A DNA stretch of 12,430 nucleotides from a virus. A model generated the notes under the pieces. The model saw only the letters and a program-made list of their open reading frames with translations. It had not been told where the DNA came from and did not search any database. Positions 174-12,430 of the stretch are shown here, piece by piece (the first letter of the stretch is position 1; every line of letters starts with the position of its first letter). The position numbers and the translations under genes were made by a program. Location of the stretch: IMG/VR virus record IMGVR_UViG_3300045988_027468. The stretch is one strand, 5' to 3'.

Positions 174-228
174 TTAACACTGTTAAAAATCACTAATTTT
201 GTTAACTTTTCGTCTGTTTTTATTAACT
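174..228 (+). repeat. Internal copy of the terminal 55-bp unit, 173 bp inside the genome end
   Basis: Exact 55/55 match to 1-55. It is preceded by a third TTAACAtTGTTAA palindrome (161-173), which creates GTTAATTAAC at the junction (169-178). Confidence 0.95.
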
Positions 229-245
229 TTTGCCTGTCTATTATT

Positions 246-287
246 GTTTCACGTGGAACAACCTGTTAGTAATGTTTCACGTGAAAC
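246..287. promoter_or_regulatory. Pair of CACGTG-core palindromic sites at the inner ITR edge: GTTTCACGTGgAAC (246-259) and perfect GTTTCACGTGAAAC (274-287)
   Basis: The 14-bp perfect palindrome is read directly. The same 14-mer recurs at 5134-5147 and 12144-12157. Putative operator or protein-binding site; function is inferred only. Confidence 0.5.
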
Positions 288-339
288 TAAATGTTAACAG
301 ATATTAATTTTATTCTTTAAGATTTCTTAACAGAAAAAA

Positions 340-371
340 TTTGGTGGTTTCGCAAAAATGCAGTATCTTTG
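340..371 (+). promoter_or_regulatory. Left inward promoter, Bacteroides-type (-33 TTTG at 340-343, 20-nt spacer, -7 TAtcTTTG at 364-371)
   Basis: Matches the Bacteroides primary-sigma consensus TTTG / TAnnTTTG with 19-21 nt spacing. The 40-mer 338-377 is 34/40 identical to the reverse complement of 12054-12093. Confidence 0.6.
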
Positions 372-1088: not shown

Positions 1089-1760
1089 ATGGCTAAACAG
1101 AATCCTATAGGGTTTACAAACAAAACGTTTGCACTTACTAGCAAAGTGCAATTAGATAAGCAAATATTAACTGCTGTAGAATCACGTGGGTATTTGCGTA
1201 AAGAGATTGCACGTGTATTTCAACAGGCAAACAGACGCATTCAGAACGTAGAAAAATCGGGTATAGTTTCGCCAGCTGTTGTTGCACTTAACAAAGGTAA
1301 TATAACAGGTTTCACAAAATTCTCTATGCGTCACAGTTGGGAAGATTTAAAGATTGAGTACGCCAAAGCGGTTTCTTTTTTACGTCAGCCAACATCTACT
1401 GCAACAGGTACGAAAGAATACGCAGAATACTTGAAAAAAGCCTATGATTTGGACGATAAAAGTTTTGCCCTTATGCAAAATAAGTTAATGGGTAAAATTG
1501 CAAGTGTTTCAGATGAGCGTTTTTTGGAACAGTACTTAATGCAATATAAAGATTTTACAGGTGAACTAGAACAGGAATCCAAAGACGTTTCAGACCAAAT
1601 CGAAGATGATGCAGTAAAAATTGAAAATGCCTTAGATGATGCCTTAGAGCAAATAGGCAATGACCCAAACGCAGAAGCATTTATTAATGACGTGGATTCC
1701 TATAATACAGATGAACCGTTAAAGCGTATATTAGACGAATTTAAAAAATTTGGTTTATAA
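1089..1760 (+). CDS. Putative terminal protein (TP) for protein-primed replication (223 aa)
   Basis: Immediately upstream of, and coupled by a TAATG overlap to, the protein-primed DNA polymerase gene, as in phi29 gene 3/gene 2. It has a basic N-terminal region (IARVFQQANRRIQNVEKSG) and a very acidic C-terminal third containing ..DVDSYNTDE.., which resembles the phi29 TP priming-loop context FDSEGN as recalled from memory. Confidence 0.6.
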   Translation: MAKQNPIGFTNKTFALTSKVQLDKQILTAVESRGYLRKEIARVFQQANRRIQNVEKSGIVSPAVVALNKGNITGFTKFSMRHSWEDLKIEYAKAVSFLRQPTSTATGTKEYAEYLKKAYDLDDKSFALMQNKLMGKIASVSDERFLEQYLMQYKDFTGELEQESKDVSDQIEDDAVKIENALDDALEQIGNDPNAEAFINDVDSYNTDEPLKRILDEFKKFGL

Positions 1761-3970
1761 TGAAGAAAATTCCCTTTGCACTACATACCGAAACGTTCAC
1801 GCCGAAAGATATTACAAAAGTTTTGTCTTTGGCTGTGAACGATAAGAATTTTACAGGAAACAATAAGGGTGAAAAGTTCTTAAACGTTCCTGTATCTTTC
1901 GATATAGAAACCACATCTTTTTACCGTGATGTGGACGGAGAAACTTACACCTATGACCGTTATATAAAATTGGGCGGTAAACAAACAAAGATGGAAAAAT
2001 GTTCTTTAATGTACGTTTGGCAATTTGGAATTAACGGTTATTGCATAATAGGTAGAACGTGGGACGAATTTATAACTATGCTGAATGAGATTTCAGACGT
2101 TTTAAACCTGTCTGAAAAGAAACGTATTATTATATACGTTCACAATTTAGCCTATGAGTTCCAATTTTTCAGAGAGTTATTGCAGTGGACAAAGGTTTTT
2201 TCAATAGACCTTAGAAAACCTATTTACGGAATAACTGAAAACGGTATAGAATTTAGATGTAGTTATCTGTTATCGGGTTATTCACTTGCAAAGTTAGGTG
2301 AACAATTACACAAATATAAATGTGAAAAGTTGGTCGGTGATTTAGATTACAGCCTGTTACGTCACAACAAAACACCGTTGACACAAAAAGAAATGGGTTA
2401 TTGTTTGAACGATATTAAAGTAGTTATGTGTTATATACAGGAACTAATCGAACAATATAAAAACATTACCCATTTACCGATAACGAAGACAGGTTTTGTG
2501 CGTAAATATTGCCGTTCTGTGTGTTTTAAGACAACAGACCCCGAAACAGGTAAAACCGTACAAAATTTTAAGTATTTGGATAAAATCCATAACTTAAATA
2601 TAACAGGTATGGAAGAATTTGAAATGCTACAAAGAGCCTTTTCGGGCGGTTTCACGCACGCAAACGCAAAGTACACAGATGAAGTTATAGAAAACGTAGA
2701 TAGTTACGATTTTACAAGTAGTTACCCCTATGTGATGGTAAGCGAAAAATTTCCTATGAGTACAGGCGTTTTCGTTCCTGTTAAGTCTATGAAACAATTT
2801 GAGTTTATGACCTCAAAATATTGCTGTGTCTTTGACGTGGAATTTACGAATATCTTTGCAAAATCAGATAACGAAAATCCAATATCGGTTAGTAAGTGTT
2901 TCGTAAAGGAAAACGTATCAGAAAATAACGGTCGTTTGGTTTGTGCTAGTAAGATATGTATGACAATTACCGAAATAGATTACAGGGTGTTTTCGCAGTT
3001 CTATATGTGGGAATCTGTGAGAATCGGCAAAATGATTTGTTACCGCAAAGAATATTTGCCAACAGAGTTTATTAAATCCATTTTGCACCTGTATGAAATG
3101 AAAACGAAACTAAAAGGGGTTAAGGGCAAAGAAGTTGAGTATTTGAATAGCAAAGAAATGCTGAATAGCTGTTACGGTATGAGTGTGACAAACCCTTTGC
3201 GTGATGAAATCGTCTGTGATGGTGAAATGTGGGACGTTGAGCATTTAACAGGTGAAAAACGCTTAGAAGTACTTAACAAATACAATGATAGCAAAAACCG
3301 TTTTCTTTTCTATCCGTGGGGAATATATGTAACAGCCTATGCACGTAGGAATCTTTTTACAGGTATTCTAGAATGCGGTGACGATTACATCTACAGTGAT
3401 ACAGACAGCGTTAAAATCAAGAACGGCGAAGACCACAAAGAGTATTTCAAAGCCTATAACGATTTGGCACAGCAAAAATTACGTGCAGCCTGTAAGTTTC
3501 ATAAAATACCGTTTGAAAAGGTTGAGCCTGTCACGATTAAGGGAATCGCAAAACCTTTGGGCGTTTGGGATTATGAGGGACGTTACACACGTTTTAAAAC
3601 TTTGGGTGCAAAACGTTATATGGTGCAGGAAAAAGGAGCGTTGACGGTAAACGGTAAAGATTACGATTACAGTTTGACGGTATCGGGTGTTAACAAGAAA
3701 TCTGCTATACCCTATATGTTAGAAACATTTGGGGAAAACGGAATCTTTGACGCTTTTACTAATTACTTAGATATTCCACCGTCTGCAACAGGTAAGAATA
3801 TACACACCTATGTAGATTATGAACAGAGTGGAACTATCACCGATTATTTGGGTACGGTTTCTACTTATGACACAAAAACAGGTGTTCATTTAGAGCCTAC
3901 AGGGTACACTTTGAGCCTGTCAGTACTTTATATAAATTATTTAATGGGAATCAGATTAAAGAAAGAATAA
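1760..3970 (+). CDS. Family B DNA polymerase, protein-primed type (736 aa)
   Basis: Motifs read from the translation: ExoI FDIETTS (D48/E50); ExoII HNLAYEFQF; ExoIII YCLNDIKVV; motif A DSYDFTSSYPYVM; motif B KEMLNSCYGMS; motif C YSDTDSV (nt 3392-3412); KxY LGAKRYMV. Confidence 0.97.
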   Translation: MKKIPFALHTETFTPKDITKVLSLAVNDKNFTGNNKGEKFLNVPVSFDIETTSFYRDVDGETYTYDRYIKLGGKQTKMEKCSLMYVWQFGINGYCIIGRTWDEFITMLNEISDVLNLSEKKRIIIYVHNLAYEFQFFRELLQWTKVFSIDLRKPIYGITENGIEFRCSYLLSGYSLAKLGEQLHKYKCEKLVGDLDYSLLRHNKTPLTQKEMGYCLNDIKVVMCYIQELIEQYKNITHLPITKTGFVRKYCRSVCFKTTDPETGKTVQNFKYLDKIHNLNITGMEEFEMLQRAFSGGFTHANAKYTDEVIENVDSYDFTSSYPYVMVSEKFPMSTGVFVPVKSMKQFEFMTSKYCCVFDVEFTNIFAKSDNENPISVSKCFVKENVSENNGRLVCASKICMTITEIDYRVFSQFYMWESVRIGKMICYRKEYLPTEFIKSILHLYEMKTKLKGVKGKEVEYLNSKEMLNSCYGMSVTNPLRDEIVCDGEMWDVEHLTGEKRLEVLNKYNDSKNRFLFYPWGIYVTAYARRNLFTGILECGDDYIYSDTDSVKIKNGEDHKEYFKAYNDLAQQKLRAACKFHKIPFEKVEPVTIKGIAKPLGVWDYEGRYTRFKTLGAKRYMVQEKGALTVNGKDYDYSLTVSGVNKKSAIPYMLETFGENGIFDAFTNYLDIPPSATGKNIHTYVDYEQSGTITDYLGTVSTYDTKTGVHLEPTGYTLSLSVLYINYLMGIRLKKE

Positions 3971-3971
3971 T

Positions 3972-5108
3972 ATGAAACAGAAGAAAGAAAAGGTGGAAAC
4001 ACCGAAATTTTATTCTTTGTCTAGAATCTTAGCAAAGAACGCAGACTATAACGTTATCTTTGGTGAACGTTCAAATGGTAAGACTTACGCAACCTTACTT
4101 TATGGAATCAAAGAATATTTGCGCACAGGAAAACAAATGGCGTATATTCGTAGATGGCGTGAAGATTTAAGGGGCAAACGTGCAGAAAGTTTGTTTGCAA
4201 ATCACGTTTCAAACGGTGTTATCGAAGAACTTACAAACGGTAAATTTAACGAAGTCTTTTACGTTTCGGGAAAATGGTTTCTTTCAAGCTATGACCCCGA
4301 AACAAAGAAACGTGTACCCGATAACGTACCGTTCTGTTTTGGTTTCTGTCTGTCAGAACAGGAACACGAAAAAAGTAGTAGTTATCCAAACATAACTACT
4401 ATTGTTTTCGATGAGTTTTTGACTAGACGTTATTATTTACCCGATGAATTTATGCTGTATATGAACCTGTTAAGTACTATCATAAGACAACGTAATGATG
4501 TTAAGGTTTTTATGTTGGGTAACACAGTAAACCAATTTTGCCCATATTTTACAGAAATGGGATTGAAACAGGTGCGAGTGATGGAACAGGGAACAATAGA
4601 TATTTATAAATTCGGTGAACACGGTGCAACCGTGGCTGTAGAATATTGTAGTACTATTGTTAAGCAAAAAGCGAGTAACAAATATTTCTGTTTCGATAAT
4701 CAGAACTTGCAGATGATTACGGGCGGTAAATGGGAACTCGCAGTTTATCCCCATTTGCCTGTGAAATATACCCCGAAAGATGTGCTTTTCGTTTTCTACA
4801 TACAGTTTAACGAAATGACATTACAGGGTAATATAATACAGGTTGAAACGTCAGACGGTGTTAATAACTTTATGTATATCCACAATAAGACCACACCGAT
4901 AAAAGACACAGAGAATAGTTTGATTTATTCACTTTGTATGAATGGAAAACCAAACTACAGACGCAAACTACTGTCAACAGCTAGTTACGTTGAATCTCAG
5001 ATAACGAAGTATTTCGCCACCGATAAGGTGTTTTATCAGAATAACGAAATCGGCGAAATTGTGCGAAACTACTTGATGGCTAGTAGCAGAAGTAATATTA
5101 TTACTTAA
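3972..5108 (+). CDS. DNA encapsidation (packaging) ATPase, phi29 gp16-like (378 aa)
   Basis: Walker A GERSNGKT and Walker B TTIVFDEF. Extended resemblance to recalled phi29 gp16 blocks (SYDRILNFVIGARGIGKSY..., YPNVSTIVFDEF..., LSNAVSVVNPYF). Confidence 0.9.
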   Translation: MKQKKEKVETPKFYSLSRILAKNADYNVIFGERSNGKTYATLLYGIKEYLRTGKQMAYIRRWREDLRGKRAESLFANHVSNGVIEELTNGKFNEVFYVSGKWFLSSYDPETKKRVPDNVPFCFGFCLSEQEHEKSSSYPNITTIVFDEFLTRRYYLPDEFMLYMNLLSTIIRQRNDVKVFMLGNTVNQFCPYFTEMGLKQVRVMEQGTIDIYKFGEHGATVAVEYCSTIVKQKASNKYFCFDNQNLQMITGGKWELAVYPHLPVKYTPKDVLFVFYIQFNEMTLQGNIIQVETSDGVNNFMYIHNKTTPIKDTENSLIYSLCMNGKPNYRRKLLSTASYVESQITKYFATDKVFYQNNEIGEIVRNYLMASSRSNIIT

Positions 5109-5120
5109 AATATGTTAAGA

Positions 5121-5162
5121 CAGGGTAAAAATTGTTTCACGTGAAACATTTTCCCTGTTTTA
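5121..5162 (+). terminator. Large imperfect hairpin (cagggtaaaaattgtttcac / gtgaaacattttccctg) followed by a T tract; terminator of the replication/packaging module
   Basis: The stem arms are read directly. The hairpin core is the 14-bp palindrome GTTTCACGTGAAAC (5134-5147). The T-rich run ttttatttgg follows. Confidence 0.6.
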
Positions 5163-5194
5163 TTTGGTCGTTTCAGATATTTTGTTTATCTTTG
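5163..5194 (+). promoter_or_regulatory. Middle promoter, Bacteroides-type (-33 TTTG 5163-5166, 20-nt spacer, -7 TAtcTTTG 5187-5194), driving the morphogenesis module
   Basis: Same architecture as the terminal promoters and the same flanks (ATTTGGTnGTTTC ... TATCTTTGCA). Confidence 0.6.
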
Positions 5195-5226: not shown

Positions 5227-5421
5227 ATGGATATAAACGCAATAGTATCGCTAGTTAGTAACGTGGGGTTTCCTGTTGCTGTCTGTATTGGTCTTTTCTT
5301 TTATATGGAGAAACAGAACGAACGCCACCAACAGGAAACCGATAAGTTAAACGAAACCGTACAGAGTAACACGAAAGTGTTAACAGAACTTTGTACATTA
5401 ATTAAAACACTTGTGAAGTAA
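5227..5421 (+). CDS. Small single-pass membrane protein (64 aa), candidate holin or YvrJ-like protein
   Basis: ATG at 5227 is preferred over the TTG at 5164, which would make the promoter coding. It has one hydrophobic helix (IVSLVSNVGFPVAVCIGLFFYM) followed by a charged, coiled-coil-like tail. Its stop overlaps the portal ATG (TAATG). Confidence 0.6.
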   Translation: MDINAIVSLVSNVGFPVAVCIGLFFYMEKQNERHQQETDKLNETVQSNTKVLTELCTLIKTLVK

Positions 5422-6575
5422 TGAAAAAAGAGAATCTTTATAACTTGTATCAAACACAGGTCAAAGACAAAGATACAGCTTTGGACACGTTCTTTCAGCG
5501 AGTTCTTTGTATGACCTCAAAGATGTTTGTGTACACAGGTTTGCCCGATTCGATTCCACAGATAGAACTTGAAAAGATTCTGCAAACTAGTGGAAATGTA
5601 GGAATCGCAAAAGTTAACGGTGAACTATATGCACTACAGGGAAACAGGGGTGGCAAATGTGATGCCTATTACAGGGGAAAAGATTTTATTGTCGCAAATC
5701 CGTGGCTAGAATTGAATAAAACGTACAATATCGGAAAAGATATTGTTGTTATCAATAACACACCGTTTGCAGATTCGATTCTCCCTGTTATCGGGAAATA
5801 TGGTGTACTTTACACAGACGCAGTTATTACTTTAAATATGACTAGCGTTTTAACTAGAATCACTATGTTAATATCTGCTAGTGATGATAAAACGAAACAG
5901 AGCGCAGAATCTTTCCTCAAAAAGATTCTGGACGGTGATTTCTCGGTAATTGGTGAAAATGCGTTTTTCAAAGGTGTTAATATGCAAACACCACCAACAC
6001 AGAGCAACCAGCAGATAACGCAGTTAATAGAACTTTTGCAGTACTATAAAGCGTCAATGTTTAACGATTTGGGGTTGAACGCAAACTATAATATGAAACG
6101 TGAACGTTTGAACACGCAAGAGGTTTCTATGAATATAGATGCGTTAATGCCTTATGTTGACGCAATGTTAACAGAACGTGTTGAGGGTGTTAAGCGAGTT
6201 AACGAAATGTTCGGTACAGACATTACCGTAACTTTGGGTTCTAGTTGGAAAATTGAACACGAAAATTATTTATCGTTACTCAAATCCACAGAAGAGGGGC
6301 ACGAACACACCGAAACAGAAGATGTTGACCCTGTAACCGAAAACGAAAATGAGGAAACAGATGAAACAGAAGAAACGCAAGAAACAGAAGAAACGGAAAC
6401 AGAAACAGAAGAAACAGAAGAAACAGAAGAAACGGAAACGGAAACAGAAGAAACAGAAGAAACAGAAGAAACGGAAACGGAAACAGAAGAAACAGAAGAA
6501 ACAGAAGAAACGGAAACGGAAACAGAAGAAACAGAAGAAACAGAAGAGGAAAAGGAAAACAAAGATGAAGATTAA
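5421..6575 (+). CDS. Portal (head-tail connector) protein, phi29 gp10-like, with a roughly 90-aa acidic Glu/Thr low-complexity C-terminal extension (384 aa)
   Basis: Block resemblance to recalled phi29 gp10 (LP..I....LEK.L...G.VG; vvINNtpFa; N...K+ER+.T.EVS.N; N+.+G..+.V). The C-terminus is ...ETEETEETEETETE... repeated. Confidence 0.8.
   Translation: MKKENLYNLYQTQVKDKDTALDTFFQRVLCMTSKMFVYTGLPDSIPQIELEKILQTSGNVGIAKVNGELYALQGNRGGKCDAYYRGKDFIVANPWLELNKTYNIGKDIVVINNTPFADSILPVIGKYGVLYTDAVITLNMTSVLTRITMLISASDDKTKQSAESFLKKILDGDFSVIGENAFFKGVNMQTPPTQSNQQITQLIELLQYYKASMFNDLGLNANYNMKRERLNTQEVSMNIDALMPYVDAMLTERVEGVKRVNEMFGTDITVTLGSSWKIEHENYLSLLKSTEEGHEHTETEDVDPVTENENEETDETEETQETEETETETEETEETEETETETEETEETEETETETEETEETEETETETEETEETEEEKENKDED
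6390..6545 (+). repeat. Tandem repeat, 39-bp unit x4 (gaaacggaaacggaaacagaagaaacagaagaaacagaa), inside the portal 3' end
   Basis: Units start at 6390 (1 mismatch), 6429, 6468 and 6507 (three identical). Each is in frame and encodes ETETETEETEETE. They sit within a broader GAA/ACN-rich tract, about 6316-6560. Confidence 0.9.
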
Positions 6576-7134
6576 AGAATTTTTCACGGTGGATAACGGA
6601 TTGTTTGAAACCATTTTTGAGCCTAATTTTCCTGTTTTGTACAAATCGATTTTCGGTGAAGACATACCAAACTTAATCGATATTGATTTGCGTTTCAAAT
6701 ATGGAAATAGGGAACTAGTTGACGCTATCACAAATGAAACTGCGACCGATATTATTAAAGGTATCATTACAGTTAAGTTTGACGAATGGCAAAAACAGAT
6801 TCAAGTGTTTAATAACGAATATGATGTGTTAAACCCTGTCACGTCAAAAGAAACAGTTACAGAAAGTAACACCGTTGACGAAACAGGAAATAATAACACT
6901 ATCGATTCAAGTGTAACTTTTAACAATGGGGAATTTGGCAATGACACGAAACAGCAAAGAGATACCACAGGGAACAGACAAGAGACACGCACGAAGACAA
7001 GTAGTAAAAGCGGTATTCCGTCTAGCGTTCCTGTTAGTGAAATTATTCAAAAAGAAATGAATCTCAGAAAAACCAACTTTAAAACACAGGTGGTAACAGA
7101 GATTGCAAAAGAAATTAGTTTAGATATTTATTAA
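6565..7134 (+). CDS. Hypothetical virion protein (189 aa); candidate lower collar/head-tail adaptor or scaffold
   Basis: ATG 6565 overlaps the portal stop by 11 nt. It lies directly after the portal, as gp11 follows gp10 in phi29. The central T/S/N/G-rich segment is suggestive of an extended beta-hairpin. No motif recognised. Confidence 0.65.
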   Translation: MKIKEFFTVDNGLFETIFEPNFPVLYKSIFGEDIPNLIDIDLRFKYGNRELVDAITNETATDIIKGIITVKFDEWQKQIQVFNNEYDVLNPVTSKETVTESNTVDETGNNNTIDSSVTFNNGEFGNDTKQQRDTTGNRQETRTKTSSKSGIPSSVPVSEIIQKEMNLRKTNFKTQVVTEIAKEISLDIY

Positions 7135-7153: not shown

Positions 7154-8338
7154 ATGGAAGTAAAACAAATTTATACGCTTATTAATAGCGTTTCATCTGA
7201 GGTTTTGGGTAAAACTGATTTGGTACACGAAGACCTCACAGGTATTGTTGATTTGGGTAATGAGGTATTCAATCAGAATGCCGTGGACAATTACGTAAAG
7301 TCACTTGTAAACCATATCGGAAAAGTGGTTTTCGTAAACCGTCCTTATTCGGGCAAAGTTCCATCTGTTTTAATGGATGCGTGGGAATTTGGTTCTGTTT
7401 TGGAAAAGATTTCAGCAGACGTTCCACAGGCTGAGGAAAACGATAGCTGGAATCTCAAAGACGGTACAGAGTACAAACAGGACGTGTTCCACAAGCCAAC
7501 CGTTTCCGCTAAGTTCTTTAACTCAAAGGTAACTTTTGAAGTTCCTGTTTCTATCACAGAACGACAGGTTAAAGAATCTTTCAGCAGTGCTGCACAGTTG
7601 AACGGTTTCCTGTCTATGATTTATAACGCTGTTGAGAAATCAATGACCATCAAGACAGACGCTTTGGTGATGCGTACAATTAACAATATGATTGCGGAAA
7701 CTTTGGACGCAGACAAGACCGCCTTTGGCTTTGTTCCATCTACCAACGAAACAGTAGACTACAGCACAGCTAGCACTGTTAGATGTGTGAATCTGTTGAA
7801 ACTTTACAAAGATAAGACAGGTACAACACTTACAGTGGACGCAGCAATCACAACACCCGACTTTATCAGATTTGCAGCCTACACAATGGGCTTGTACTCA
7901 GACCGTTTGCAGACCATTTCCACCCTGTTTAACGTAGGTGGTAAAGAGCGTTTCACACCAAAGGACGTTTTGCACACAGTTCTTTTGAGTGACTTTGCAG
8001 CCGCTGCAAAAACTTATCTGTATGCCGACACGTTCCACGAGGATAACGTGCTTTTGCCAAAGGCTGAAACCGTGGCAAGTTGGCAAGCTACAGGCAAAGA
8101 TTATGCCTTTGACCACGTTTCAAAGATTGATGTGAAATCTGCTAGCGGTGCTAGTGTTTCTATCGGTGGTGTGTTGGGTGTGATGTTTGACCGTGACGCT
8201 TTGGGTGTTACAAATCTTGACAAGCGAGTAACAACCAACTATAACGCAAAGGCTGAGTTTTTCAATAACTATTACAAGTTCGATGCAGGTTATTTCAATG
8301 ACACAAATGAGAACTTTGTAGTCTTCTTTATCGCCTAA
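7154..8338 (+). CDS. Major capsid protein, phi29 gp8-like (394 aa)
   Basis: Resemblance to recalled phi29 gp8 blocks: DNYVKSLVNHIGKVVF vs NDFITSLVDRIGLVVI; LNGFLSMIYNAVEKS vs FESFVSSIINAIYNS; FFNNYYKF vs YWNYYYHV. Followed by the strongest terminator hairpin in the window. Confidence 0.85.
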   Translation: MEVKQIYTLINSVSSEVLGKTDLVHEDLTGIVDLGNEVFNQNAVDNYVKSLVNHIGKVVFVNRPYSGKVPSVLMDAWEFGSVLEKISADVPQAEENDSWNLKDGTEYKQDVFHKPTVSAKFFNSKVTFEVPVSITERQVKESFSSAAQLNGFLSMIYNAVEKSMTIKTDALVMRTINNMIAETLDADKTAFGFVPSTNETVDYSTASTVRCVNLLKLYKDKTGTTLTVDAAITTPDFIRFAAYTMGLYSDRLQTISTLFNVGGKERFTPKDVLHTVLLSDFAAAAKTYLYADTFHEDNVLLPKAETVASWQATGKDYAFDHVSKIDVKSASGASVSIGGVLGVMFDRDALGVTNLDKRVTTNYNAKAEFFNNYYKFDAGYFNDTNENFVVFFIA

Positions 8339-8857: not shown

Positions 8858-10728
8858 TGGCAAGTTATAAAATTAATTATCACTTAACAAACTGTACTAC
8901 TACAGCCGCAAGTAGTGAAAATTACGACACAGACGGTAATGTTATAAAGTTTTGCGGAAAAGCTGTTGACGGTTGTTATTTTTTACCAAATGACGGTGAC
9001 TATAATTATATTTCACGTCTGAGTGGTGGAACAACAAAAGTTACACATTTTAATCTGTCACGTGTTTCTGCTAGTGACAACTCAAAAGTTATTAGCGGTG
9101 ATATTGACGGTATTTCATCAGATGGCAAGTATTTTTCAAAACGTTTGACGTTTGGAACAGCCAACAGCGGTGAAATGGAATGTTACTTAAACGCACGTGG
9201 TGGAACACCTACAGTTAAAACGTTAAAGATACACAATAACGTTTCGGGAACAAATGCCGTTTCGGTGCAAAACGATACAAATTTCGATATTACGTTGACA
9301 GGTGACACAGACGGTACTTTTACGGTTGTTCCTGTAGTTACTTACAAGAACACGTATAACGAAACCGCACAGGGAACAATGAACGTTAAAGGTAACGTAG
9401 CTACATTTAGTGTTCCTGTAGAAACAAACGAAGAGGTAACAATAAACGGAACGTTCACACCGAAACCGAAAGAGTTAACAATAACAAACCACGTTTCGGG
9501 AACTACTGCAACCTATGTGCAAAACGGTGAAAATTTCGATATTACGTTGACAGGTAACACAGATGGTAGTTTTTCTGTTGTTCCTGTAGTTTCGTATAAA
9601 AACGAAAGTGGAACGGAAACCACAGATGAAATGAACGTTAACGGTAAAACAGCTACATTTAGTGTACCTGTTGCGACAAACGACACAGTAACCATTACAG
9701 GAACGTTTAAACCCGAAAAGCCACAGAAAAACGTTCCTATTACTTATGCGTTGACAAATTGTACCGTTTCACCACAGCCACAGACAGTTAAAACAGGGGA
9801 AACTTTAAACTTGACTGTCACACCTGTTATCAATTACAAACTAGATTCGTGCAATCTTATTTGGAATGACGGAACGAAAGATATTACGATAAGTGTTACA
9901 GGTGGTGTTATTTCGTTCCCTGTGCCCGATTCTTGCGTTTCTGTGACGATTAAAGCTGTAGCTAGTATAATAACGCCTGTTGGTAGAAATTATGGTGCTA
10001 TAAACGTTTATTGCGTGACGCTTGACAATTTGGACGCATTTTCTAAACAGCGTTTCTTTGAAATAAAAGATGATACACAGGGAATCTATGAAGAGGTTAA
10101 TTTAGGAATCTATGTAAATCGTATCAAACGCATTTTCACAAACGTTCCTGTATCGGGGTCGGATTCTTTGCGGTGTGGTAACTACAACACAGGTATAACG
10201 GTACAAACACCCGAAAAAGACATTATAATGCTAGACTTTGGCAATGTGACGTTAACAGGTTTGAACGGTGATTCGGAAGACTATAACGCACAAATTTCGG
10301 TGTTCATTCCGTGCCGTGGCTTTGTCGCTATAGATAGTAAGTATATCGGTAAAACGGTAAACCTATCTTTCAAAGTGAACGTTATTACAGGTGATGCGGT
10401 AGCGTTTTTGTCCTGTGATGGCGTTATCTTTCAGTTAGAAAGTTTTTCTTTGTCACGTGATGTTATTTACAAGACAGGAACAACAGAACTTAATATCGTA
10501 GGCGGTACGCAATGGGACGAACAAATTTTGTATGGTTTAGAACCTTATGTTATTATCACGCAGAACACTACAATAAACAAGCCTGTGAACAATACACAGG
10601 AAACCGTAACAATAGGGGACGTGACAGGCTACGCACAGTTTGAAAACGTAGATTTGAACACGGTTAATTTGTTGGTCGATGAGTATAACACCATTATTTC
10701 AGAACTTGAAAACGGTGTTTATCTATAA
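8857..10728 (+). CDS. Multi-domain tail protein (623 aa): probable receptor-binding/tail-knob protein with tandem beta-sandwich-like repeats
   Basis: Two adjacent ~84-aa repeats (aa 121-204 and 205-289). Two further modules both open with an LTNCT motif (aa 10-14 and 299-303). The C-terminal end GYAQFENVDLN..EYNTIISELENGVYL resembles the recalled gp9 C-terminus NYVQTKD..DLQEIRTIFDNGITLW. Confidence 0.8.
   Translation: MASYKINYHLTNCTTTAASSENYDTDGNVIKFCGKAVDGCYFLPNDGDYNYISRLSGGTTKVTHFNLSRVSASDNSKVISGDIDGISSDGKYFSKRLTFGTANSGEMECYLNARGGTPTVKTLKIHNNVSGTNAVSVQNDTNFDITLTGDTDGTFTVVPVVTYKNTYNETAQGTMNVKGNVATFSVPVETNEEVTINGTFTPKPKELTITNHVSGTTATYVQNGENFDITLTGNTDGSFSVVPVVSYKNESGTETTDEMNVNGKTATFSVPVATNDTVTITGTFKPEKPQKNVPITYALTNCTVSPQPQTVKTGETLNLTVTPVINYKLDSCNLIWNDGTKDITISVTGGVISFPVPDSCVSVTIKAVASIITPVGRNYGAINVYCVTLDNLDAFSKQRFFEIKDDTQGIYEEVNLGIYVNRIKRIFTNVPVSGSDSLRCGNYNTGITVQTPEKDIIMLDFGNVTLTGLNGDSEDYNAQISVFIPCRGFVAIDSKYIGKTVNLSFKVNVITGDAVAFLSCDGVIFQLESFSLSRDVIYKTGTTELNIVGGTQWDEQILYGLEPYVIITQNTTINKPVNNTQETVTIGDVTGYAQFENVDLNTVNLLVDEYNTIISELENGVYL
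9217..9723 (+). repeat. Intragenic tandem duplication (~252 bp x2: 9217-9468 and 9469-9723) encoding two related ~84-aa domains
   Basis: KTLKIHNNVSGTNAVSVQNDTNFDITLTGDTDGTFTVVPVVTYKN...ATFSVPVETNEEVTINGTFTPKP versus KELTITNHVSGTTATYVQNGENFDITLTGNTDGSFSVVPVVSYKN...ATFSVPVATNDTVTITGTFKPEKP. Confidence 0.9.
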
Positions 10729-10730
10729 AA

Positions 10731-10766
10731 GAAAAGGGACGGTAACAAATACCGCCCCTTTTTTCT
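10731..10766. terminator. Bidirectional intrinsic terminator between the convergent rightward and leftward modules
   Basis: The stem gggacgg (10736-10742) pairs with ccgcccc (10752-10758) with one mismatch. It is flanked by gaaaa upstream and tttttt downstream, so a U-run follows the hairpin in both orientations. Confidence 0.7.
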
Positions 10767-12015: not shown

Positions 12016-12059
12016 AATCTTATTATTTAACTGTTTGACTTATTTTTTAATTTCTGCTG

Positions 12060-12091
12060 CAAAGATACGACTTTTTCACGAAACTACCAAA
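12060..12091 (-). promoter_or_regulatory. Right inward promoter, Bacteroides-type (minus strand: -33 TTTG = 12088-12091, 20-nt spacer, -7 TAtcTTTG = 12060-12067)
   Basis: The reverse complement reads aatttggtagtttcgtgaaaaagtcgtatctttgcagcag, 34/40 identical to the left promoter 338-377. Confidence 0.6.
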
Positions 12092-12143
12092 TTATTTTTG
12101 TTAATAGTTCTTAAATTAAAAATTTTAATCTTTTTAACAAAAC

Positions 12144-12185
12144 GTTTCACGTGAAACATTACTAACAGGTTGTTCCACGTGAAAC
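12144..12185. promoter_or_regulatory. Mirror pair of CACGTG-core palindromes in ITR-R: GTTTCACGTGAAAC (12144-12157) and GTTcCACGTGAAAC (12172-12185)
   Basis: Read directly. They sit 53 nt upstream of the right promoter -33 element, the same distance as on the left. Confidence 0.5.
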
Positions 12186-12430
12186 AATAATAGACAGGCA
12201 AAAGTTAATAAAAACAGACGAAAAGTTAACAAAATTAGTGATTTTTAACAGTGTTAATTAACAATGTTAAATGTGTTAAATAATCGTAATTGCGGCACAC
12301 AGCAAAAAGCGTGCCAAAGTGTTAGCAACTGTTAAATATGTGTTGGAATGTTAAAATAGGGTGCCTTGTGTACCTAGTTAATAAAAACAGACGAAAAGTT
12401 AACAAAATTAGTGATTTTTAACAGTGTTAA
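12144..12430. repeat. Right inverted terminal repeat (ITR-R), 287 bp
   Basis: Perfect reverse complement of 1-287. The window ends exactly at the repeat end, as expected for a complete linear replicon. Confidence 0.95.

Follow-up and report, generated by a model that had tools for sequence, protein, structure and literature searches.

The window, by which we mean the whole stretch of 12,430 bases that was analysed, is a complete linear genome with the gene set of a phi29-like podovirus and is related to Astrithrvirus. Its main genes and the features discussed below are collected in Table 1; tail protein genes are also present, and a right-end operon that reads leftward includes an M15 endolysin. 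The two ITR arms (1-377 and 12054-12430) are 93% identical and match perfectly through base 287. No GenBank phage was matched when the whole window was searched by megablast, and relatives were recovered by protein-level search only. The nearest cultured kin are Astrithrvirus phages of Salmonella, Pectobacterium, Acinetobacter and Vibrio, with capsid proteins 55-59% identical to that of the window, and IMG/VR holds at least 80 near-relatives (capsid identity 89-100%). Sister clades, whose ATPases are 70-80% identical, were recovered with a more distant capsid query. We saw no lysogeny genes in these phages. Among the small proteins, p121 gave a weak PDB match to the S1/OB-containing part of Rpo7 (E=0.022); its single-sequence AlphaFold model (pLDDT 37.6) was left out of our reasoning.

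Table 1. Positions of the genes, predicted promoters, terminator elements and parS-consensus sites in the 12,430-base window
Feature	Position	Strand	Evidence or remark
Left ITR outer parS-consensus site, TGTTTCACGTGGAACA	245-260	.	Same sequence as four phi29 sites
Left ITR inner parS-consensus site, TGTTTCACGTGAAACT	273-288	.	Perfect 14-bp core
Predicted left promoter, TTTG-N20-TATCTTTG	340-371	+	Promoter scan; repeat family D17
Protein-primed family-B DNA polymerase (PolB)	1760-3970		Pfam DNA_pol_B_2
gp16-like packaging ATPase, final gene of the left operon	3972-5108	+	PF05894 (Podovirus_Gp16), E=2.3e-23; PHROG terminase
Predicted intrinsic-terminator hairpin	5116-5162	+	RNA fold -19.3 kcal/mol, z -4.28
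Central parS-consensus site, TGTTTCACGTGAAACA	5133-5148	.	16/16 consensus match; apex of the terminator hairpin
Terminator T tract, TTTTATTT	5158-5165	+	Final bases shared with the -33 TTTG
Predicted middle promoter, -33 TTTG (5163-5166), 20-nt spacer, -7 TATCTTTG (5187-5194)	5163-5194	+	
Holin-like membrane protein, 64 aa, first gene past the middle promoter	5227-5421	+	PHROG 4898 holin, E=6.6e-8
Connector	5421-6575		Pfam Phage_connector
phi29-type major capsid protein	7154-8338		Pfam Phi29_MCP
Predicted right promoter, TTTG-N20-TATCTTTG core, into the right-end operon	12060-12091	-	
Right ITR inner parS-consensus site, CGTTTCACGTGAAACA	12143-12158	.	Perfect 14-bp core
Right ITR outer parS-consensus site, TGTTCCACGTGAAACA	12171-12186	.	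Consensus match using the variable N position

We scanned the window for TTTG-N20-TAnnTTTG and found five matches where 1.03 were expected, three of which lie where operons begin. The predicted left promoter would serve p55, p121, p223, PolB and the ATPase, and the predicted middle promoter the genes for the holin-like protein, the connector, the capsid and the tail. The -33 TTTG and -7 TAnnTTTG elements correspond to the Bacteroides/Bacteroidota primary-sigma consensus. At the middle promoter both elements are present with the right spacing, at an operon start, and are conserved; its -7 box is invariant across 81 genomes and is retained in the sister clades. All three promoters share the same core, so that the sequence gives no sign of the distinct late promoter postulated in an initial annotation of this locus. 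A weak Shine-Dalgarno-like motif precedes only 2 of 14 genes, and the metagenomic relatives of phage Astrid have been placed in Bacteroidia/Bacteroidales hosts (PMC11476376, a 2024 review). Because of the three promoters, the near-absence of Shine-Dalgarno motifs and the hosts of the Astrid relatives, we consider the host to be probably a member of the Bacteroidota. The Spo0A box TGTCGAA is absent from the window, against 2.0 occurrences expected. Bacteroidota are not known to sporulate.

The ATPase stop codon (5106-5108) is followed after 8 nt by a hairpin that ends 65 nt short of the ATG of the holin-like gene (5227). RNA folding of 5105-5175 gives this single hairpin, centred on a palindrome, and none of 200 shuffled sequences was as stable (shuffle mean -9.1 kcal/mol). 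CAGGG at 5121-5125 pairs with CCCTG at 5153-5157 to form a G/C stem, and the palindrome contributes a further 6-7 base pairs. The hairpin of about 37 nt that the initial annotation had drawn around the 14-mer GTTTCACGTGAAAC (5134-5147), with a T tract behind it, is thus borne out in its stem (5121-5157), its stability and its T tract. It also abuts the conserved promoter, the T tract overlapping the -33 TTTG at 5163. A simple terminator scan missed the hairpin because the stem has a bulge and an internal loop, and an Rfam scan gave nothing credible and no match at the hairpin or at the ITR sites.

To follow the hairpin through evolution, we aligned the junction of the window with those of 80 relatives (81 genomes), whose flanking genes are 77-95% identical in DNA. 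TTTTATTTGG and TATCTTTGCA show little or no variation across this alignment, and all 71 distinct variants among the relatives fold into the same hairpin with a mean energy of -19.6 kcal/mol. RNAalifold run on the MAFFT junction alignment predicted no structure, because indels shift the outer stem out of register; we therefore replaced it by per-sequence folds and an alignment of the stem arms. The outer-stem helices of the relatives include AAACAGGG/CCCTGTTT, AAACGGGG/CCCCGTTT, AACGGGGG/CCCCCGTT, AACAGGGG/CCCCTGTT and AAATAGGG/CCCTATTT, with G-U intermediates between them, and the compensatory changes run from A-T to G-C and from C-G to T-A. With arms taken from each sequence's own minimum-energy fold, a choice that biases the count toward pairing, 88.6% of outer-stem cells are paired against 76.3% after shuffling and both sides have changed in 26 cells against 10.1, values reached in none of 500 shuffles. 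Because the outer stem covaries in the 80 relatives, we regard the terminator as real; in these alignments it behaves like a true intrinsic terminator. The proposed terminator role of the RNA is therefore supported by the uniform folding of the variants, the compensatory changes and the invariant T tract.

We then examined the palindrome at the apex of this hairpin. Allowing up to two mismatches, the 14-mer occurs five times in the window, starting at 246, 274, 5134, 12144 and 12172, where 0.12 copies would be expected, and none of 200 shuffled windows contained five such copies. The 17-mer GTTTCACGTGAAACATT, reported in the initial annotation as common to the ITR copies, is indeed present in three copies, one on the minus strand (271-287) and two on the plus strand (5134-5150 and 12144-12160), with an expectation of 0. 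Previous studies give TGTTNCACGTGAAACA as the parS consensus for B. subtilis, Corynebacterium and others and the same 14-mer as parS for M. smegmatis (PMC7022226). The perfect 16-bp palindrome has served as the search consensus for gut bacteria including Bacteroidetes, and for 12 of 12 gut bacteria, two Bacteroidetes among them, homologues of ParABS were reported together with consensus parS sites, most of which cluster close to the origin (PMC10197239). By its sequence, the palindrome is the canonical chromosomal parS, the site of ParB/Spo0J. In our own scan of 185,579 species genomes, the exact 16-mer appeared in many phyla among the matches listed, and in the two Bacteroidota matches examined it lies beside gidA/mnmG (two copies in Prevotella, one in Chryseobacterium), which is origin-proximal in many bacteria. 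Operators of the CRP/FNR, LacI-family, Rex and LexA types were considered as candidates and dropped on the exact parS match.

The four non-central sites are each one base off the palindrome. Both inner ITR sites have their mismatch at the outermost base, and the perfect ITR stretch stops exactly at base 287, within the left inner site. In the left outer site, the sole departure from the palindrome coincides with the N of TGTTNCACGTGAAACA when the opposite strand is read. All five sites are intergenic and upstream of the three promoters, 14-100 bp before the -33 elements; the left promoter lies 51 nt inward of the inner site, and the middle transcript probably starts about 59 bp downstream of the central site.

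Across the 80 relatives we counted 368 parS sites against 0.2 expected, and the outer ITR site is conserved in relatives and sister clades alike. The core of the central site is exact in 49 relatives and has one mismatch in 25, so that it is kept in 74 of 80; in five it is worse and in one (L076) it is deleted, while the hairpin, the T tract and one contig-end ITR parS are retained. With an imperfect central site in 31 of the 80 relatives, selection on it is weak or the site can be dispensed with. Roughly half of the variants are transitions after which a G-U pair can still form, and RNA pairing could contribute to the conservation of the core as well. In two genomes recovered with the sister clades (L455 and L461) the hairpin carries TGTTCCACGTGGAACA, in which both arms have changed symmetrically so that pairing and parS consensus are each kept; this variant is near the parS consensus of Myxococcus xanthus, TGTTCCACGTGGAACG (consensus from PMC7022226). 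L072 has lost all five sites, with at least two changes in each, and its genes are the same as those of L036, in which the sites are intact; this concerted decay fits a single shared trans-acting factor.

The sister clades keep the paired ITR parS sites, 42 nt apart and in the same orientation. Their ATPase/holin junction has no parS; a TAnnTTTGCA promoter stands there behind a hairpin that is either short and A/T-rich or of a G/C type quite unlike that of the window. Since these junctions keep the module without the site, comparison of the sequences makes the central parS a clade-specific add-on built into the hairpin rather than the core of a temporal switch; the terminator-promoter module is ancestral and the ITR sites are older. 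The conservation anticipated by the initial annotation at the junction of relatives consequently holds in close relatives and fails in the sister clades. Its idea of a compact element for temporal control is supported neither by these junctions nor by the loss of the core from L076 with the hairpin left in place.

Enterobacterial relatives have no intergenic module, their ATPase gene running directly up to the holin-like gene. Genome scans did not find parS in the Astrithr-like phages of Salmonella, Pectobacterium and Enterobacter, nor in the related phages of Acinetobacter and Vibrio, hosts that have ParABS. Enterobacteriaceae are without chromosomal par genes (PMC7022226). A comparison of host par genes with phage parS sites is therefore in agreement for the enterobacterial phages but is made non-discriminating by those of Acinetobacter and Vibrio, which also indicate that parS is optional.

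Other phi29-like clades carry the motif too. Of 120 IMG/VR contigs with the exact 16-mer, 27 are phi29-like phages, whose PolB proteins are 22-45% identical to that of the window, and we found no small protein common to the window and the other parS-bearing clades. One unrelated clade of about 14 kb has a GGAGG Shine-Dalgarno sequence and signals of sigma-70 type with a TATAAT-like -10 box, which suggest that its host is probably Firmicutes-like. It has 5-6 conserved sites (319 in 80 contigs against 0.4 expected), two of them 34 nt apart just 5' of the holin operon and further ones within PolB and structural genes. In the L186 clade two sites adjoin the promoter of the holin operon, and in the L100 clade many sites are intragenic and distant from promoters. 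Homologues of the holin-like protein are placed after parS sites in other phi29-like clades.

Which protein might bind these sites? Pfam and PHROGs searches of all small proteins of the window detected no DNA-binding regulator family, no ParB domain and no homologues of p4 or p6, and p108 is absent from relatives that retain the sites. The site keeps every letter even where the phage proteins have diverged to 25% identity, and it equals a near-universal host motif, a combination best explained by a conserved host protein, ParB. On this comparison, a protein very probably binds the palindrome as double-stranded DNA, at the junction and in the ITRs alike, and host ParB is the likely partner. Of the operator proposed initially, the shared protein site therefore stands, and its reading as an orphan phage operator gives way to parS. 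By analogy with phi29 in Bacillus, the phage probably borrows the chromosome-partition protein of its host.

Taken together, we put at roughly 70% the probability that 5116-5194 is an ancestral terminator-promoter module with a parS in the apex of its hairpin, one of five host-ParB loading sites on a genome with a probable Bacteroidota host. The intrinsic terminator would end the left operon, with its replication genes and ATPase, and a host-sigma-type promoter would then start the morphogenesis operon. The central and the four ITR sites would provide five loading sites for host ParB on 12.4 kb. As outlined in PMC7053999 and PMC8367383, ParB dimers nucleate at parS, bind CTP, close as clamps and spread; on the phage parS sites they could do the same and spread over the small genome. 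From what is described for phi29, ParB might then couple the phage genome to the machinery by which the host partitions its chromosome and positions its origin, and the genome would be carried along in dividing or dormant cells. Partition and persistence is by this analogy the most likely purpose: the pay-off would be inheritance in dividing cells, a non-sporing counterpart of the Spo0J-dependent spore entrapment of phi29. Placing the palindrome inside a hairpin that was needed already would cost no extra space in a tightly packed genome.

ParB occupancy could also dampen phage transcription as a secondary effect, which is plausible because each of the five sites has one of the three promoters closely downstream and because ParB represses elsewhere: in P. 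aeruginosa it represses promoters adjacent to parS3 and parS4 (PMC5521831) and in S. pneumoniae comCDE (PMC4488948). The same observations would support transcription as the actual purpose, with parS sensing the state of the host and ParB spreading silencing the three promoters to defer lysis as the Spo0A boxes of phi29 do, and the two sites abutting the holin-operon promoter in the L186 clade point the same way. Against this, a constitutive synthetic promoter in S. pneumoniae is reported to be unaffected by a nearby parS (PMC4488948), many sites of phi29 and of the L100 clade are intragenic and far from promoters, and in the sister clades the middle promoter is without a site. Intergenic DNA is moreover the only free space, and closeness to promoters may be incidental. 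We consider a primarily transcriptional purpose unlikely.

An operator that times the early-late switch, read by a dedicated phage regulator or through a structure-based mechanism, seems highly improbable. The position of the central site before the middle start, the copies upstream of both ITR promoters and the two copies immediately 5' of the holin-operon promoter in the L186 clade would suit it, and p55, p121, p71 and p81 have no assigned function. However, the sequence is exactly the host centromere consensus, and it recurs in phages without a common small protein and in phi29, where host Spo0J is used. The one protein singled out above, p108, is missing where sites persist, the three promoters have one core and no separate late class, and the terminator-promoter junction exists without the palindrome in the sister clades and without its core in L076.

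Harder still to credit is a decoy function, in which the phage copies would soak up host ParB and the proteins it recruits and so disturb segregation or division. Five sites per 12.4 kb is a high density for a small replicon and is found in many relatives, and a slight excess of ParB alters 176 loci in P. aeruginosa (PMC5521831); yet the precedent of phi29 is one of Spo0J used for segregation of the phage's own genome, and the benefit of a decoy is doubtful in a fast lytic cycle. That the central palindrome is a mere stem top, resembling the ITRs through recombination and recognised by no protein, is scarcely believable: it does add base pairs to the hairpin, many variants keep G-U pairing and L455 and L461 changed both arms symmetrically, but the ITR copies lack a G/C outer stem, a T tract and incoming transcription, a 16/16 match in five copies is not chance, other clades keep the motif within coding sequence and the symmetric variant is itself close to the M. 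xanthus parS.

The preferred reading, host ParB acting on phage-borne parS, replaces an orphan "switch element" with a named candidate partner. It also implies that carriage of the host centromere by phi29-like phages is not a speciality of Bacillus sporulation: gut metagenomes contain hundreds of phi29-like genomes of 11-14 kb in which parS is much more frequent than chance would allow, and one clade among them has Bacteroidota signals. The parS motif and the phi29 precedent are already known. What appears to be new is parS in an Astrithrvirus-like clade with Bacteroidota signals, its placement in the ITRs and in a terminator, and its breadth among gut phi29-like phages; a 2024 review of phi29-like phages leaves parS unmentioned (PMC11476376). 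A parS inside a terminator makes a single sequence serve as RNA structure and as predicted DNA site for a protein. If ParB does bind, tiny lytic phages could ride host segregation and persist, which bears on the coexistence of phages and bacteria in the gut. As a possible though doubtful extension, very small and nominally virulent phi29-like phages of gut Bacteroidota and Firmicutes might carry the host centromere as a rule and be positioned and partitioned by host ParABS as linear episomes, in a carrier state without integrase or repressor; in the clade of the window, ParB at the terminator and ITR sites would also hold down the three promoters and decide between dormancy and lysis.

The arrangement can be compared with several known systems. 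With the p4/p6 switch of phi29 it shares an early/late boundary and host-factor sites near promoters and genome ends. The window's promoters are however tandem rather than divergent, with one shared host-type core and no 0A boxes, and a p4-type switch does not describe a junction where no regulator was found and which exists without the palindrome. As in the ParB-repressed promoters of P. aeruginosa and S. pneumoniae, parS lies tens of base pairs upstream of promoters, offering a plausible route to modulation of the middle promoter; those cases are chromosomal and experimental, whereas an effect in the window is a possibility that the sister clades manage without.

The hairpin resembles other intrinsic terminators in having a G/C-rich, covarying stem and then a U tract after a stop codon, and differs from them in that a conserved palindrome, the predicted protein site, takes up the third of the stem nearest the loop, where they have free sequence, and in that the U tract overlaps the next -33 element. 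In chromosomal ParABS systems we find the same 16-bp palindrome, copies likewise clustered (28 bp apart in the window) and, in Bacteroidota, adjacency to gidA. Chromosomal parS lies near oriC in most bacteria, whereas the sites of the window belong to a linear viral genome of 12 kb with terminal protein at its ends and no parA or parB nearby, and one copy doubles as a terminator RNA hairpin.

The closest parallel is phi29 itself, which has five parS sites and whose genome is helped into the forespore by host Spo0J, according to the summary of Meijer et al. (2005) in PMC2731898. Use of Spo0J is thus reported for phi29, whereas use of ParB is predicted for the window. Since the probable host belongs to the Bacteroidota, for which sporulation is not known, and the window has no Spo0A boxes, spore entrapment cannot be the purpose here. 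Of the marks of a phi29-type system, several parS copies without an own ParB are present; Spo0A boxes are absent, and the expression signals are those of Bacteroidota rather than Bacillus. The sites of the window lie in the ITRs and the terminator hairpin, upstream of promoters, whereas the phi29 sites that we found are mostly intragenic and in the right half of the genome. Scanning phi29 (NC_011048), we identified four copies of the variant that forms the window's left outer ITR site, one of which starts at the stop codon of the gene 16 ATPase, a few bases before the bidirectional terminator TD1. Both phages therefore combine a protein-primed PolB, a gp16 ATPase, a connector and a phi29-type capsid with multiple copies of the parS consensus and no ParB of their own, and in both one parS stands right after the packaging ATPase gene, near a terminator.

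Conserved parS sites, the ParB/Spo0J centromere-type element, also occur in a separate clade of phi29-like genomes of about 14 kb (L330-L406, L100 and L186). Across 80 contigs of this clade we counted 319 sites versus 0.4 expected, and the genomes carry 5-6 conserved sites together with expression signals consisting of a Shine-Dalgarno sequence and sigma-70-type elements. Two of the sites form a pair, 34 nt apart, directly upstream of the holin operon, while the remaining ones are located within the genes coding for PolB, tail and connector.

The cultured relatives astrithr (L201), Phanie (L202), DU_PP_III (L204) and Entb_47 (L205) infect Proteobacteria. No parS was found in these four genomes, nor is there a terminator-promoter module between their ATPase and holin-like genes, which adjoin or overlap.

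Among the close relatives of the window, L072 has all five parS sites degraded together, with at least two changes per site, and its gene content is that of the relatives with intact parS. The right-end operon opens with a gene for a 108-aa product with no family match; this gene is missing from the relatives L005, L036 and L072 and is therefore a variable accessory gene.

The left, middle and right promoters of the window share a near-identical core, ATTTGGTnGTTTC...TATCTTTGCA, and nothing in the sequence points to distinct classes for early and late promoters. In each inverted terminal repeat (ITR), perfect identity between the arms stops exactly where the inner parS core ends (287/288 and 12143/12144). 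Past this core the similarity falls to only about 80-90%, with the promoter core still common to both arms.

Each ITR also contains an exact second copy of its terminal 55 nt, 173 nt inward. The same 55-nt sequence is present in relatives at an internal position (about 120-166), but their contigs are mostly shorter than the window and are thus silent on whether a terminal copy exists. The doubled end may reflect a genuine duplication of the origin region, or it may have arisen in assembly.

Positions of sites, promoters, terminal repeats and the variable gene in the window and two other genomes
Genome	Feature	Position	Strand	Repeat families
Window	Promoters with near-identical core	340-371, 5163-5194, 12060-12091		
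Window	55-nt terminal repeat, left ITR	1-55 and 174-228		D6, D7
Window	55-nt terminal repeat, right ITR (mirror copies)	12203-12257 and 12376-12430		D6, D7
Window	First gene of right-end operon, 108 aa	11689-12015	minus	
L072 (close relative)	Degraded parS sites	36, 65, 4951, 11680, 11709		
L186 (example of the ~14-kb clade)	parS sites	3051, 5688, 5722, 8610, 11242		

Further repeats are found within structural genes of the window. The C-terminal part of the connector gene (6306-6575) is made up of an extended series of imperfect 9/12/39-nt repeats, GAAACAGAAGAA... (family D1), coding for an acidic Glu/Thr-rich tail. An ORF at 6349-7134 overlaps the connector gene; its in-frame ATG at 6565 is a possible start of the next gene, whose product may be a scaffold protein. 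The 623-aa tail gene contains a tandem duplication at 9205-9713 with a 252-nt period and 77-79% identity (families D2 and D4), a pattern indicating that a domain of ~84 aa is present twice. At 10732-10762, where the rightward and leftward operons meet, there is a strong hairpin with a 13-bp stem and a flanking T tract on either strand; it probably terminates transcription in both directions, as TD1 of phi29 does.

In phi29 itself (L209, NC_011048), the parS at 17243-17258 starts at the TAA stop codon of gene 16, which encodes the packaging ATPase, and is followed a few bases later by the terminator TD1. This order of gene 16, parS and TD1 parallels that of ATPase gene, parS and terminator in the window.
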